This document shows positions 49,190 to 54,025 of a DNA stretch of 64,000 bases, piece after piece (within the stretch, counting starts at the first letter, position 1; every line of letters begins with the position of its first letter). Below the pieces are notes generated by a model. That model was not told where the DNA came from and searched no databases. It saw only the letters and a list, made by a program, of their open reading frames with translations. The position numbers and the translations under genes were made by a program. The stretch comes from Solirubrobacteraceae bacterium. GTDB taxonomy: Bacteria > Actinomycetota > Thermoleophilia > Solirubrobacterales > Solirubrobacteraceae. The stretch spans positions 160,387 through 224,386 of the forward strand of contig DATJQY010000015.1 in NCBI GenBank assembly GCA_035505215.1, in the 5' to 3' direction.

Positions 49190-50122
49190 GTGGCCCGCTG
49201 CTTCGTCACCCGAGAGCTCCCCGGACCCGCGCTGGGGCGGCTGCGGGAGGTGCATCAGGTGGAGGTGTGGCGGGAGCGCGTGCCGCCGAGCTACGAGGAG
49301 CTGCTCGAGCACGTCCGGGAGGCCGAGGGACTGCTCAGCCTCCTCTCTGACCGCGTCGACGCCGAGCTGATCGCGGCCGCGTCGCACCTGCAGGCGATCT
49401 CCAACTACGCCGTCGGCTACGACAACATCGACCTGGAGGCGGCCGCCGCGCGCGGCATCCCGGTGGGTAACACGCCGGACGTGCTCACCGACGCCACGGC
49501 CGATCTCGCCTTCGCGCTCCTGCTCGCCGCCGCCCGGCGCCTGCCCGAGGGGATCGAGGAGGTCAGAGCCGGCGAATCGCAGACCTGGGAGCCGGCCCAC
49601 AACCTCGGCACCGACGTCCACGGGGCGACGCTGGGGATCATCGGGTTCGGGCGGATCGGCCAGGCCGTGGCGCGCCGGGCCAAGGGCTTCGACATGCCCG
49701 TGCTCCACACCGGCGCCAGCAGCAGCGCTGAAGAGCTGGCCGACCTCCTCGAACGCTCTGACTTCGTCTCCCTGCACGTGCCGCTCACGCCGGAGACCCA
49801 CCACCTGATCGACGCCGCCGCGCTCCAGCGGATGAAGCCGACGGCGATCCTCGTCAACACCGCTCGGGGCGGGGTGGTCGACCAGGAAGCCCTCCGCCGA
49901 GCCCTCCACGACGGCGTCATCGGCGGCGCGGCGCTCGACGTCACCGACCCCGAGCCGCTCCCTCCCGACGACCCGCTGCTCAGCGCGCCCCACCTGATCG
50001 TCGTGCCCCACATCGGCTCGGCCACCCGCCACACGCGCGAGCGGATGGCCGACCTGGCCGTGGACAACCTGCTCGCGGCGCTGGCCGGCGAGCCGATGCC
50101 CCATCAGGTGGCGGTCGGATGA
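49190..50122 (+). CDS. D-isomer-specific 2-hydroxyacid dehydrogenase (glyoxylate reductase-like)
   Basis: AVGYDNID, NTPDVL, GFGRIG, NTARG, LDVTDPEP, PHIGSA. Confidence 0.93.
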   Translation: MARCFVTRELPGPALGRLREVHQVEVWRERVPPSYEELLEHVREAEGLLSLLSDRVDAELIAAASHLQAISNYAVGYDNIDLEAAAARGIPVGNTPDVLTDATADLAFALLLAAARRLPEGIEEVRAGESQTWEPAHNLGTDVHGATLGIIGFGRIGQAVARRAKGFDMPVLHTGASSSAEELADLLERSDFVSLHVPLTPETHHLIDAAALQRMKPTAILVNTARGGVVDQEALRRALHDGVIGGAALDVTDPEPLPPDDPLLSAPHLIVVPHIGSATRHTRERMADLAVDNLLAALAGEPMPHQVAVG

Positions 50123-51045
50123 CCCGGATCGCGGTCGTCGACATCGGCACCAACTCCACCCGGCTGCTCGTGTGCGACCGCGAGGGCGATCAGATCACCG
50201 ATGAGCTCGAGCGTGAGTCGAGCGTGACCCGGCTCGGCGCGGGCGTCGACGCCGACGGCCGGCTGGCCGAGGCGTCGATGGACCGCGTCTACGCCACCCT
50301 CGATAAGTACAGGGAGCTGATCGACGGCCGTGACGCCCAGGTCAAGATCGCCGTCCTCACCAGCGCGGTCAGGGACGCCGCCAACGGGCGGGAGTTCGCC
50401 GACACCGTCGCGGCGCGCTACGGGCTTACGCCCCACGTGCTGAGCGGGGACGAGGAGGCAGAGCTCACCTTCCTGGGCGCGATGAGCGAGCGCGACCCGG
50501 CCGACGAAACGCCCACGGTGGTGGTCGACATCGGCGGCGGCTCGACCGAGGTCGTGATCGGGCGCGGGCGCCAAGCGACGTTTCACGTCTCGACCCAGGC
50601 GGGCGTCGTGCGCCAGACCGAGCGCCACATCCACGACGATCCCCCGACCGAGGAGGAGCTCGACGAGACCCGCGCGGACGTGCGCGAGACGCTAGGTCAG
50701 GGGGTGCCCGAGGAGCAGCGCCAAGCGGTCGAGCACGCGATCGCGGTCGCCGGCACGGCGACCTCGCTCGGGGCCATCGCCCAGGAGCTCGAGCCCTACG
50801 ACCCGGAGAAGGTGCACGGCTACCGGCTGACCCGATCCGAGTGCGAGGAGATCCTGAAGCGGCTGGCCGCGATTCCGCTGGACGAGCGCCGCCAGGTCCC
50901 GGGGCTCCATCCCGACCGGGCGCCGACGATCGTCGCCGGCGTGATCATCCTGACCGAGGTGCTCCGGCTGTTCGGGCTCAACGAGGTCGAGGTCTCAGAG
51001 CACGACATCCTGCGCGGGGCCGCGCTCGGACTGGTCGACGGCTAG
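50119..51045 (+). CDS. ppx: Ppx/GppA-family phosphatase
   Basis: VDIGTNSTRL, TSAVRDA.N, EA.LTFLG, DIGGGSTE, R...I.AG. Confidence 0.92.
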   Translation: MTRIAVVDIGTNSTRLLVCDREGDQITDELERESSVTRLGAGVDADGRLAEASMDRVYATLDKYRELIDGRDAQVKIAVLTSAVRDAANGREFADTVAARYGLTPHVLSGDEEAELTFLGAMSERDPADETPTVVVDIGGGSTEVVIGRGRQATFHVSTQAGVVRQTERHIHDDPPTEEELDETRADVRETLGQGVPEEQRQAVEHAIAVAGTATSLGAIAQELEPYDPEKVHGYRLTRSECEEILKRLAAIPLDERRQVPGLHPDRAPTIVAGVIILTEVLRLFGLNEVEVSEHDILRGAALGLVDG

Positions 51046-51549
51046 CCCGGCGCCTGGCCGGCGGCGCCGAGGCGGAGGCGGATGTCCGCGCACTCAGCGC
51101 ACACCTCGTCCGGGACCAGGCCGGCCCGCATGAGCAGGGCGAAGATCCGGCAGCCCAGGCAGTAGGCGAAGATCGACTCGAGCCCGGAGGCGATGACGAG
51201 CAGGCCAAGCAGGACATCGGCCGCGGTGTGATGGCCGAGGATCAGCCCGACCACGAGGGCGGCGGTTGAGATCACCGCGCCCATGCCCTGGGCGAAGCGC
51301 TTGGGCGGTCCCGGGGCCGGCTTACGCGGGCCCAGCCGGGGCGCGAGGACGTTCTGCGCCGTCCAACCCAGAGGGCTCAGCGTGGGCCCGGTCAGAACCC
51401 CGGGCCCAGAAGCCGTAGGCGAGCGGGATGAGCAGCCAGTAAGCCCCGGTAACCAGCGTTGTCACCGCGAGAACGAAGACAACGGCCGCCACCGTGCGGG
51501 CGGCCTTCTCGTTGACCGGATTGGGAAAGGAGAAGAGCCCGCGGGCCAT
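51042..51549 (-). pseudogene. DUF4395-family membrane protein interrupted by a +1 frameshift
   Basis: FSFPNPVNE.AAR in one frame and LTGPTLSPLG...PGPPKRFAQGMG...LES..AYCLGC in another. One extra G in the run at 51398-51401. May be a sequencing error. Confidence 0.75.
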
Positions 51550-51680
51550 CAAAATCCATCTTAGTCTGTCGGGTTTCAGGCCTTCTCGCTGCGGAGATTC
51601 TTACGAACCGGTGGCGGAAAACCCCCGTGGCTACAGGTTTATCCGGAATCTGGACTTTTGAAGGTCTGAATAAGTTCCTC

Positions 51681-51710
51681 TTGACAGCGGCGGTGCGTTC
51701 CTGTCATTAT
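51681..51710 (+). promoter_or_regulatory. Sigma70-type promoter with overlapping inverted repeat
   Basis: TTGACA-18 bp-CATTAT, with TGACAG-N13-CTGTCA overlapping. No ORF follows. Confidence 0.6.
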
Positions 51711-51713
51711 TCC

Positions 51714-51887
51714 GACGGGGCAAGCTTTGCTAGCCCCACACATAGGCTCGGGCGAAGCCGCAGACATCGGCGCCTCCCGCCGTCCGAGCCAATCTAACCG
51801 GCCCTTTCTGGCACGTACCCCTGCCCGTCCCGATTGGGCCAAACCTGGATCGGAAGCCGCCCGCTGAAATGCGGGCGGTTTTCGTTG
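51714..51887 (+). ncRNA. Candidate ~170-nt small RNA
   Basis: Bounded by the promoter above and an intrinsic terminator; several complementary stems; no plausible ORF. Confidence 0.55.
51854..51887 (+). terminator. Intrinsic terminator
   Basis: GCCGCCCGC-TGAAAT-GCGGGCGGT followed by TTTCGTT. Confidence 0.75.
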
Positions 51888-52151
51888 TGCGGTGGCGGGC
51901 GGTTTGCCTTATCGGTGGGGCGATGCCGCGCCGGCGACCCTTACTCGCCGACCGCCGTCCTTGAGCCGATGGCGCCGAGGCGAGCGATGGGCGGGAAGGG
52001 TCGCCCCGGGGCCGGGAAGCAGCGTGCGCTCGCGGACCCAATCCGCCAATCACCGCCCGATGTGGGCTCGCGCGGCAGCCAGGGTCCGTTTTCCGGACCC
52101 TACGTGCCGAGGAGCGGCGCAAAGCGGAGTAGTTGGCGAGTTAGGTCCGGC

Positions 52152-52270
52152 CGCCAGCGCCGCCGCGAACCGAGGGCCGCCAGCGCCCCCGCGAACCGAG
52201 CAACGCCAGCGCCCCCGCGAACCGAGCAACGCCAGCGCCGCCGCGAACCGAGCAACGCCAGCGCCGCCGC
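52152..52270. repeat. 26-bp tandem repeat (4 full copies + 1 partial)
   Basis: Consensus CGCCAGCGCC(G/C)CCGCGAACCGAGCAA at 52152, 52178, 52204, 52230 and partial at 52256. No spacers. Confidence 0.93.
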
Positions 52271-52278
52271 CCGCCGAG

Positions 52279-53946
52279 CTAGGCCAGATTCGACCGCCGC
52301 GGGTAGGCCACGCTCGGGTCGGTGAGCACGTTCACCAGCGACGGCTGACCCGAGGCCAAGGCCCGCTCCAGGGCCGGTCGGAGCTCGTCCGCCGTCTGGA
52401 CGAATTCGCCGTGACACCCGAGCGCCTCGGCCACCCGGTCATAGCGGGTGCCCGGGCGCAGGTCGGCGACGACCGAGTAGCCGTAGAGCGCCTCCATCGG
52501 GTGCTTTTCGAGGGCCCAGATGCCGTTGTTGCCCATCACCGCCATCACCGCCACGCCGTGGCGGGCGAGGGTGTCGAGCTCCATGCCGGAGAAGCCGAAG
52601 GCGCCGTCGCCGAGGAGCAGCACGACCTGCCGGTCGGGGCGGGCCAGCTTCGCCGCCAGGGCATAGCCCATGCCCGATCCCAGGCACCCGAACGGTCCCG
52701 GATCGACCCAACACCCGGGCTGGAAGCAGTCGATGACCCGCCCGGCGTAGGAGACGAAGTCGCCGCCGTCGCCAACCACGATCGCGTCACGGTCGAGCAG
52801 CCGGGCCAGCTCGCCGTAGATCCGCATCGGATGCAGCGGCGCCCGCGGATCCGACAGCTCGCCCCGCTCACCCTCCCGGCGCTCGGTCTCCAGGCGACGC
52901 AAGGACGCGATCCACTCGTTGCGCAAATCGGCCACGTCCGCTTCCGGGGACCGCGCCGCGTCTCGCAGCGCGTCGAGCGTGGCCGGGAGCGCGCCGTAGA
53001 GCTCGGCGGCCAGCGTCCGCGGATAGCGCCGGTCGGGTTCGGCCGCCTCGATCGCGACGACGTCGGCGTCCGGGGCGAAGACGGCGCCGAAGCCGAGGCG
53101 GAAGTCGAGCGGGACCCCGATCACGAGCGCCAGGTCGGCGCCCGCGAGGCCCGTGCTCCGCGCGCGGGAGAAGAAGAGCTCGTGATCGGCGGCCAGGCAG
53201 CCGCGGGCCAGGCCGTTGAGGAACACGGGGATCCGGAGCTCCTCGGCGAGCACCCGCAGCGCGTTCTCCCCATGGCCCCAGTAGAGCCCGGTCCCGGCCA
53301 TGATGACCGGGCGCTCCGCCTCGGCCAGAAGGGCGGCCGCGCGCGACAGGTCCGGTCCGGACGCCCCGTCACCGCGCCACGGCTCGGGCGGCGGGGGCGC
53401 CGCGGCCAGCGGCTCGGCGCCTTCCATGAACACCTGATCGAGTGGGAAGTCGACGAACGCCGGTCCCGAGGGCGGGGACAGCGCCGCCCGCACCGCGACG
53501 TCGAGCAGCCCGGGGATCTCGTCGGTGAGCACGGCGGTGGTGGCGATCTTGGCCAGCGGACGGACGATCGGGACGTGGTCGATCTCCTGGAGTGAGCCCT
53601 GACCCCAGCGCTGCTGGGGAGCCCGGCCGCCGAGGACGAGCAGCGGGGACTGGTTGAGCGAGGCGGCGGCGATAGCGCTCATCCCGTTCATCACGCCGGG
53701 ACCGGCGGTCAGCGCGCAGGCGCCGAGCTGGCGCGTCACCTTGGCCCATCCCTCGGCGGCGAAGGCCGCCGTCTGCTCGTGGCGAACGTCGATCAGCCGG
53801 ATCCCCTCGGCGCGGGCGCCATCGTAGATCGAGAACAGGTGACCGCCGGAGAGGGTGAACAGGGTGGTGATGCCGTGCTCATGCAACCGCCGCGCCACCA
53901 GCCGTCCGCCGTGAAGCCGGGTCCCGGCCTCCGTTTCGGTGTCCAC
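52279..53946 (-). CDS. Acetolactate synthase-like ThDP enzyme (IlvG/2-hydroxyacyl-CoA lyase-like)
   Basis: DVRHEQ.A.F.AEG, TAGPG, ThDP motif GDGAF...NN. No regulatory small subunit nearby. Start GTG 53946 lies 7 nt after TAGCGT. Confidence 0.88.
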
Positions 53947-54025
53947 GACCAAGACGCTAACACTGCGCTTAGGCTCGGCAGTAGGATCGAGACGTTCTCA
54001 CGACTGCGAGCAGGAGGTTCACGAG

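Follow-up and report, generated by a model that had tools for sequence, protein, structure and literature searches.

Genomic locus and promoter of the small RNA gene

The window analyzed here (64,000 nucleotides [nt] of contig DATJQY010000015.1 of a Solirubrobacteraceae bacterium) very likely carries a gene for a small RNA (sRNA) of about 170 nt on its plus strand. The gene extends from an inferred transcription start at about position 51717 to position ~51886, where it is intrinsically terminated. Its upstream neighbor is a DUF4395 gene on the minus strand (PF14340), which separates it from a gene for a Ppx/GppA phosphatase (ppx; 50119 to 51045, plus strand; PF02541) lying farther upstream. 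Downstream, a thiamine-pyrophosphate (TPP) enzyme of the acetolactate-synthase type (557 amino acids; PF02776/PF00205/PF02775) is encoded on the minus strand (52279 to 53952). The RNA is thus antisense to both neighbors, as had been stated in an earlier note on this DNA.

The DUF4395 gene is divided into two open reading frames (ORFs), one of which (51322 to 51549) corresponds to profile positions 1 to 50 and the other (51042 to 51284) to positions 80 to 130; either a frameshift, faulty assembly, or a pseudogene accounts for the split. In the window, ~390 nt (51887 to 52278) separate the sRNA terminator from the TPP enzyme stop codon, and this spacer contains a 26-nt tandem repeat (52152 to 52270; 4.6 copies, 94% matches). 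In most relatives, this stop codon is only a few tens of nucleotides from the terminator. The distance from the conserved RNA motif to the TPP enzyme gene is 123 to 180 nt in most relatives versus 510 nt in the window.

The promoter (51681 to 51710) consists of a perfect −35 hexamer, TTGACA (51681 to 51686), an 18-nt spacer, and an extended −10 element, (TGT)CATTAT, with CATTAT at 51705 to 51710, and is near consensus as a whole. It was the only sigma-70-like site found in 2.5 kb, compared to 0.1 sites expected from shuffles, and the TTGACA-18-CATTAT promoter that had been described in the note is retained. Of 140 distinct upstream regions of orthologues, 59 have a motif of the form TTGnnn-N16-19-nAnnnT (score of at least 8 of 12) at the same position, compared to 3 of 140 shuffled ones. 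The promoter is bracketed by an inverted repeat with 10-nt arms (left arm, 51664 to 51673, GTCTGAATAA; right arm, 51707 to 51716); the right arm overlaps the −10 element and the transcription start, in keeping with the previously noticed overlap of repeat and promoter.

In most orthologues (for example, loci L002-L020 and L033-L039), a box of the sequence nTGGAC-N4-GTTCGA directly abuts the −35 element (TTGC). The position of this operator-like box suggests that transcription of the RNA is regulated in most orthologues. The window's copy lacks the box and instead displays the perfect TTGACA together with a different inverted repeat, whose left arm (51664 to 51673) occupies the place of the box. 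Upstream of lexA in the window's genome, we found TCGAAC-AGGT-GTTCGA (contig C1, position 2190; TCGAACAGGTGTTCGA). The right half of the box is identical to this LexA half-site, whereas its left half is conserved as TGGAC and not as CGAAC. Control of the RNA by LexA (SOS) or DNA damage may be regarded as a lead.

Conservation and distribution of the RNA

The RNA was recovered by BLAST from 44 of 61 related genomes, mostly as one copy per genome and with identities of 73 to 98%. Within the genus, it is 78 to 98% identical, mostly above 85% (window positions 51735 to 51886), and in other families of the order the identity is 73 to 82%. The RNA core (51738 to 51886) displays a higher identity than the flanking proteins, which are ~70% identical. 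Conservation of sequence and structure, on which the existence of the RNA had been said to depend, was thus found both in these relatives and in the covarying stem P1 described below.

The RNA recurs in more than 160 Solirubrobacterales genomes between ppx and a convergent TPP enzyme gene. Among 160 loci, 129 have ppx upstream on the strand of the RNA, and 132 have the TPP enzyme gene downstream in convergent orientation. A two-block pattern (GGCGCCTCCCG, 25 to 50 nt, ACCCCTGCCCGTCC) matched at least 120 species, and among the matches listed, nearly all titles named Solirubrobacterales, Solirubrobacteraceae, Thermoleophilaceae, Conexibacter, Paraconexibacter, Baekduia, or Svornostia. Cultured carriers are Conexibacter sp. 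CPCC 205762, Solirubrobacter deserti CPCC 204708, Paraconexibacter antarcticus 02-257, and Svornostia abyssi J379. R1, a covariance model built on the RNA core, was run over 401 genomes spread across Actinomycetota and yielded matches inside the order only; two weak matches outside the order were located in apparent coding sequence and were discarded. With BLAST and R1 combined, the RNA was detected in the window's family (f1) and in families f2, f3, and f6, and it was not found by these searches in families f4 and f5. As judged from these genome sequences, the RNA family is restricted to the order Solirubrobacterales (class Thermoleophilia).

A copy with 98.5% identity is present at positions 1 to 136 of contig C14 of the same metagenome-assembled genome (MAG), where the flanking proteins are 61 to 73% identical to those of the window. 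The stretch C14:1-7209 repeats the RNA-TPP-HxlR-Mce order at the contig end. Since the whole synteny is repeated at 61 to 73% protein identity, we rejected this copy as a paralogue, and C14 is most likely a contig of a related organism that was binned into the MAG. Several other MAGs also have contig breaks inside the RNA.

The RNA is organized as a string of hairpins

The 174-nt transcript stretch folds at −85.1 kcal/mol, with a z score of −4.7 relative to dinucleotide shuffles. According to the comparative analysis, it consists of four successive hairpins, P0, P1, P2, and the terminator. The 5′ hairpin P0 (GGGGC.AGC...GCU.GCCCC; 51717 to 51737) is variable in sequence between species, while the hairpin itself is kept. 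Of 91 distinct orthologous 5′ segments, 70 were listed, and nearly all of these had a 5′ hairpin as their fold of minimum free energy; the few segments without it were promoter miscalls. Despite their unrelated sequences, these hairpins always end, at their base, just before the conserved ACAUAGG, and the paired fraction of the first 15 nt within P0 is about 0.6. The P0 hairpins of seven orthologous loci carry an extra GUGCCUCCCGCC loop, which contains a second copy of the CCUCCC motif described below.

P0 is followed by a single-stranded linker, ACACAUA (51738 to 51744), in which CAUA is at least 90% conserved, and by the P1 domain (51745 to 51790). P1 constitutes a three-way junction: a 10-bp stem (51745 to 51754/51781 to 51790) encloses the hairpin P1a (51757 to 51760/51768 to 51771) and an unpaired junction (51772 to 51780). 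The stem was 99% paired, with compensatory changes in 8 of 10 pairs, and the observed score was reached by none of 500 shuffles; covariation was measured twice, in a plain MAFFT alignment and then in a model-based alignment. In two divergent orthologues, P1a is swapped for unrelated hairpins. The P1 junction exposes the sequence CCUCCC (51773 to 51778), which is part of the invariant block GGCGCCUCCCG (51769 to 51779) and is identical to the anti-Shine-Dalgarno core. This motif is invariant among 77 representatives, which had been collected by the use of a search pattern containing CCUCCC; it is also kept in orthologues that were detected without that pattern.

The P2 hairpin (51800 to 51840) comprises a stem (51800 to 51808/51832 to 51840) and a 23-nt loop with the invariant C-rich block ACGUACCCCUGCCCGUCC (51813 to 51830). 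At least 5 bp surround this block in all 77 representatives, which use 30 different outer helices to form them, and changes on both sides were seen in 9 of 9 stem pairs. Covariation across orthologues, which the earlier note had proposed to look for, was seen in P1 and P2. Over 28 diverse orthologues, the mean unpaired probability was 0.79 for CCUCCC and 0.75 for ACCCCUGCCC in the P2 loop, compared to 0.38 for the whole RNA; accessibility is thus predicted for the two C-rich blocks.

The RNA ends with an intrinsic terminator (51851 to 51886), whose core G+C stem (51856 to 51864/51871 to 51879) can be extended to 14 bp (51851 to 51864/51871 to 51884) and is followed by the tail UUUUCGUU; the loop is UGAAAU. 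The description of a strong terminator at this site was accurate. A hairpin with a U-rich tail was found in 139 of 153 distinct orthologous 3′ regions.

The comparative structure replaces a fold that had been derived by hand, a single long irregular hairpin. Two of its elements are real, GGCTCGG/CCGAGCC being the P1 stem and GCCG/CGGC being P1a, but its two closing stems have a pairing probability of ~0. A 5′ hairpin (GGGGC..GCCCC) had been described as a competitor of this fold; the comparative data back this hairpin and not the long one.

The locus encodes a noncoding RNA outside known families

Taken mod 3, the spacing of the two invariant blocks is 0, 1, and 2 in 27, 29, and 21 of the 77 representatives, respectively. 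Since it is evenly spread, no reading frame is conserved, and a small protein was rejected. The statement that the region has no ORF holds in this comparative sense, although a 46-codon ORF with a TTG start is present at 51727 to 51867.

A search of the window with Rfam 15 at the gathering score produced no match at the RNA and only a tRNA elsewhere. At an E value of up to 10, the region from 51500 to 52350 yielded terminator-driven noise only (Hrs13 with 18.7 bits, NsiR4, and a miRNA). The covariance-model check against Rfam therefore assigned no known family to the RNA, which had been described as unannotated. Full-text literature searches returned nothing relevant on sRNAs or RNA biology of Thermoleophilia or Solirubrobacterales.

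The gene displays the sequence features of a stand-alone, intrinsically terminated sRNA gene, namely, its own promoter, no conserved ORF, a Rho-independent terminator, and covariation. The sequence comparison supports a discrete, strongly constrained noncoding RNA gene with its own promoter and terminator. Very likely, the ~170-nt sRNA gene at this locus is real, previously uncatalogued, and common to soil Solirubrobacterales. It defines an RNA family that is absent from Rfam 15 and well defined, and the RNA is of a familiar sort.

The RNA is distinct from 6S RNA

The earlier note had raised the possibility of a 6S-like RNA that binds RNA polymerase (RNAP). This reading is unsupported: the 6S model RF00013 does not match, a rod is not formed, and sister families have a separate canonical 6S RNA. 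RF00013, which has a membership cutoff of 46.4 bits, gave no match at an E value of up to 10 in the region from 51500 to 52350 and none at an E value of up to 0.001 in the whole genome. The 6S rod was rejected, as its closing stem had a pairing probability of ~0 in 24 of 24 orthologues, including the window's copy. The rejected outer stems would require base pairing between the 5′ end, which is variable, and the P2 loop, which is invariant. The 5′ end forms a covarying hairpin of its own, and P1 and P2 are separate hairpins, so that there is no rod with a central bubble.

RF00013 detected a canonical 6S RNA above the cutoff in 16 of 41 genomes of the order, namely, in every f2 and f4 genome and in some of those of f3. 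In six genomes, the canonical 6S RNA and the present RNA were found at different loci. In family f1, no 6S RNA was found in 9 genomes searched with the Rfam model or in 31 genera searched with R2, an order-specific 6S model built from the RF00013 matches within the order; the 6S RNA of the window's family is either lost or strongly diverged. The present RNA coexists with canonical 6S RNA in sister families and is therefore neither a 6S orthologue nor a simple 6S substitute.

Proposed function as a trans-acting regulator

In the sRNA 6C of Mycobacterium tuberculosis, C-rich loops bind G-rich ribosome-binding site (RBS) regions of many mRNAs independently of a chaperone (PMC6486639). The hairpins of the present RNA are predicted to display invariant C-rich single strands, and we therefore favor, by analogy with 6C and at roughly even chances, a trans-acting sRNA whose C-rich loops would pair with G-rich ribosome-binding sites and which would regulate the translation or stability of many targets. 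In this mechanism, the hairpins would hold the invariant CCUCCC of the P1 junction and ACGUACCCCUGCCCGUCC of the P2 loop unpaired, and these blocks would act in trans by base pairing with G-rich segments of several mRNAs, in Shine-Dalgarno sequences or in the 5′ untranslated region (UTR). Pairing would block ribosome access or alter mRNA stability without the need for Hfq, a mode of action demonstrated for the 6C RNA of other Gram-positive bacteria of high G+C content. The rRNA-like conservation could then be accounted for by the constraint that many targets, or a partner, would impose, and the extra CCUCCC in the P0 loop of several lineages is as expected of redundant seed motifs. However, a trans-acting sRNA gives no explanation of why the location next to ppx and the TPP enzyme gene is so strictly conserved.

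Target prediction with RNAduplex over 8458 candidate start regions of this genome (72% G+C) revealed no outliers; the best duplex match of the P2 loop, a terminator hairpin beside a spurious ORF, was rejected. Exact 11-mer complements of the RNA in the genome occurred at chance level or within coding motifs. One match in a coding sequence corresponds to R-G-x-G-Y-x-L, which we take to be a motif of OmpR-type regulators. An 11-nt complement to the P2 loop (CGGGACGGGCA) was seen outside the window, on contig C34 of the same genome (~458600 to 459800); this 1.2-kb stretch contains no ORF of at least 70 codons with a GC3 of at least 0.8 and looks structured, and it may represent another noncoding RNA or a long leader.

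We also considered a mimic or antisense of the 3′ minor domain of 16S rRNA, since the P2 loop seemed to resemble positions 1391 to 1409 and P1a plus CCUCC seemed to resemble helix 45 and the anti-Shine-Dalgarno sequence. This candidate was rejected, as local alignment with the 16S rRNA of a same-genus genome did not exceed shuffled sequences and scored 20 in the same sense and 22 in antisense, with a shuffle mean of 20.1.

Alternative explanations

Instead of mRNAs, the unpaired blocks could contact protein, and the RNA would then bind or sequester a protein or form part of a ribonucleoprotein (RNP), including the case of a noncanonical RNAP-binding RNA like 6S, Ms1, or CoRP. We consider such a role rather unlikely overall, although the conservation of the long unpaired stretches is comparable to that of rRNA, as would suit protein-contact surfaces, and the ~45 invariant unpaired nucleotides exceed typical seed conservation and fit a protein or RNP partner equally well. 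The RNAP-binding variant draws on the lack of a 6S RNA detectable with the Rfam model or R2 in family f1 and on the wide variation of actinobacterial RNAP-binding RNAs in sequence and shape (PMC9130861; PMC11077062). It is opposed by the fold, in which a rod with a central bubble is missing and the 5′ and 3′ ends are unpaired with each other, as well as by the coexistence with canonical 6S RNA in f2 and f3. Moreover, the RNA is missing from f4 and f5, and f5 also lacks a detectable 6S RNA; the distributions of the two RNAs are therefore independent. The length of ~170 nt is well below those of Ms1 (~300 nt) and of CoRP, a 516-nt RNAP-binding RNA of Actinobacteria (PMC11077062), and the flanking genes are unlike the oxidoreductase and HAD-IB hydrolase/phosphoserine phosphatase genes that flank Ms1 (PMC9130861). 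That the RNA is a clade-specific RNP RNA, for instance, a non-rod RNAP-associated RNA that has taken over the 6S/Ms1 niche in f1, appears improbable. An RNAP-related role keeps this small chance because f1 shows no 6S RNA and actinobacterial RNAP RNAs are very diverse.

It is similarly doubtful that the RNA is a structured element with intrinsic activity, such as an orphan aptamer or a ribozyme-like fold, whose loops would provide tertiary contacts or a ligand pocket and whose output would be exerted via the adjacent terminator or in trans. Covarying stems combined with invariant junction and loop nucleotides form a pattern known from riboswitch aptamers and ribozymes, and strong conservation is seen in the CAUA linker and in the three-way junction of P1. 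An aptamer, however, would have no downstream gene to act on in cis, the next gene being convergent in 132 of 160 loci. In addition, the C-rich loops have no conserved G-rich partner, and therefore no internal pseudoknot is apparent; nor do any riboswitch or ribozyme families of Rfam match.

It is very improbable that the locus is no independent gene and represents a conserved 3′ UTR of ppx, a product of ppx transcript processing, or an element that acts as a bidirectional terminator and insulator between ppx and the TPP enzyme gene: in 129 of 160 loci, the RNA does come after ppx and is read in the same direction, its start is within ~50 nt of the ppx stop codon in some genomes, and its terminator is located just ahead of the stop codon of the convergent gene, but a minus-strand DUF4395 gene intervenes in the window, the near-consensus promoter ahead of the RNA has counterparts at the same distance in other species, and the ~110 nt of covarying, sequence-invariant structure before the terminator go far beyond the needs of termination.

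Significance of the RNA family

Thermoleophilia, with the order Solirubrobacterales, are abundant soil Actinomycetota. The order-wide, rRNA-like conservation, the well-supported fold, and the two exposed C-rich motifs make the RNA a strong candidate for a core posttranscriptional regulator of this clade. A trans-acting RNA of the favored kind would bear on the question of how Hfq-less bacteria of high G+C content use sRNAs with C-rich loops and, together with the apparent absence of 6S RNA in one family, the RNA bears on the regulation of RNAP in stationary phase. With a seed alignment and a covariance model at hand, it constitutes a ready-made new RNA family, and the cultured carriers make it experimentally accessible.

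Comparison with known RNAs

RoxS/RsaE of Firmicutes is a widely conserved sRNA that is transcribed from a repressor-controlled promoter and uses several unpaired C-rich motifs to target Shine-Dalgarno sequences. It differs from the present RNA in phylum, size, and fold, and the Rfam search indicated no homology. With 6S RNA, the present RNA shares the length class (150 to 190 nt), high conservation, a strong promoter, and the occurrence as one copy per genome. Ms1 is likewise a structured actinobacterial sRNA with conserved synteny and has been proposed for clades without 6S RNA; however, its length is ~300 nt and its gene sits between oxidoreductase and HAD-IB hydrolase genes (PMC9130861), whereas the present RNA has a length of ~170 nt and a place between ppx and the TPP enzyme gene. 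Thermoleophilia are not mentioned in the paper on Ms1 (PMC9130861).

The 6C RNA (RF01066; B11/ncRv13660c in M. tuberculosis and scr3558 in S. coelicolor) is not the family to which the present RNA belongs. The 6C model (cutoff, 47 bits) matched neither in the region, at an E value of up to 10, nor at the locus in 41 relatives, in a search of limited sensitivity that gave a match in only 1 of 14 control genomes. A single subthreshold 6C-like match (37.8 bits) among the 41 relatives was located elsewhere in the respective genome (G051 C1:913091-913164), and a diverged 6C RNA may exist in part of the order. The present RNA is about twice as long as 6C and contains a three-way junction and a 23-nt loop in place of two small C-loop hairpins; its motifs, CCUCCC and CCCCUGCCC, are interrupted by U and G, whereas those of 6C are runs of C. 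It is located beside ppx and the TPP enzyme gene, in contrast to 6C, which lies beside Ms1 in mycobacteria. Nevertheless, 6C provides the best functional analogy: it is actinobacterial and highly conserved and has its own promoter and terminator, as does the present RNA, and it presents C-rich sequence in loops that pair with G-rich RBS regions independently of Hfq (PMC6486639). The present RNA has two invariant C-rich unpaired blocks, but these are placed in a junction and in the 23-nt loop and do not follow the layout of 6C.
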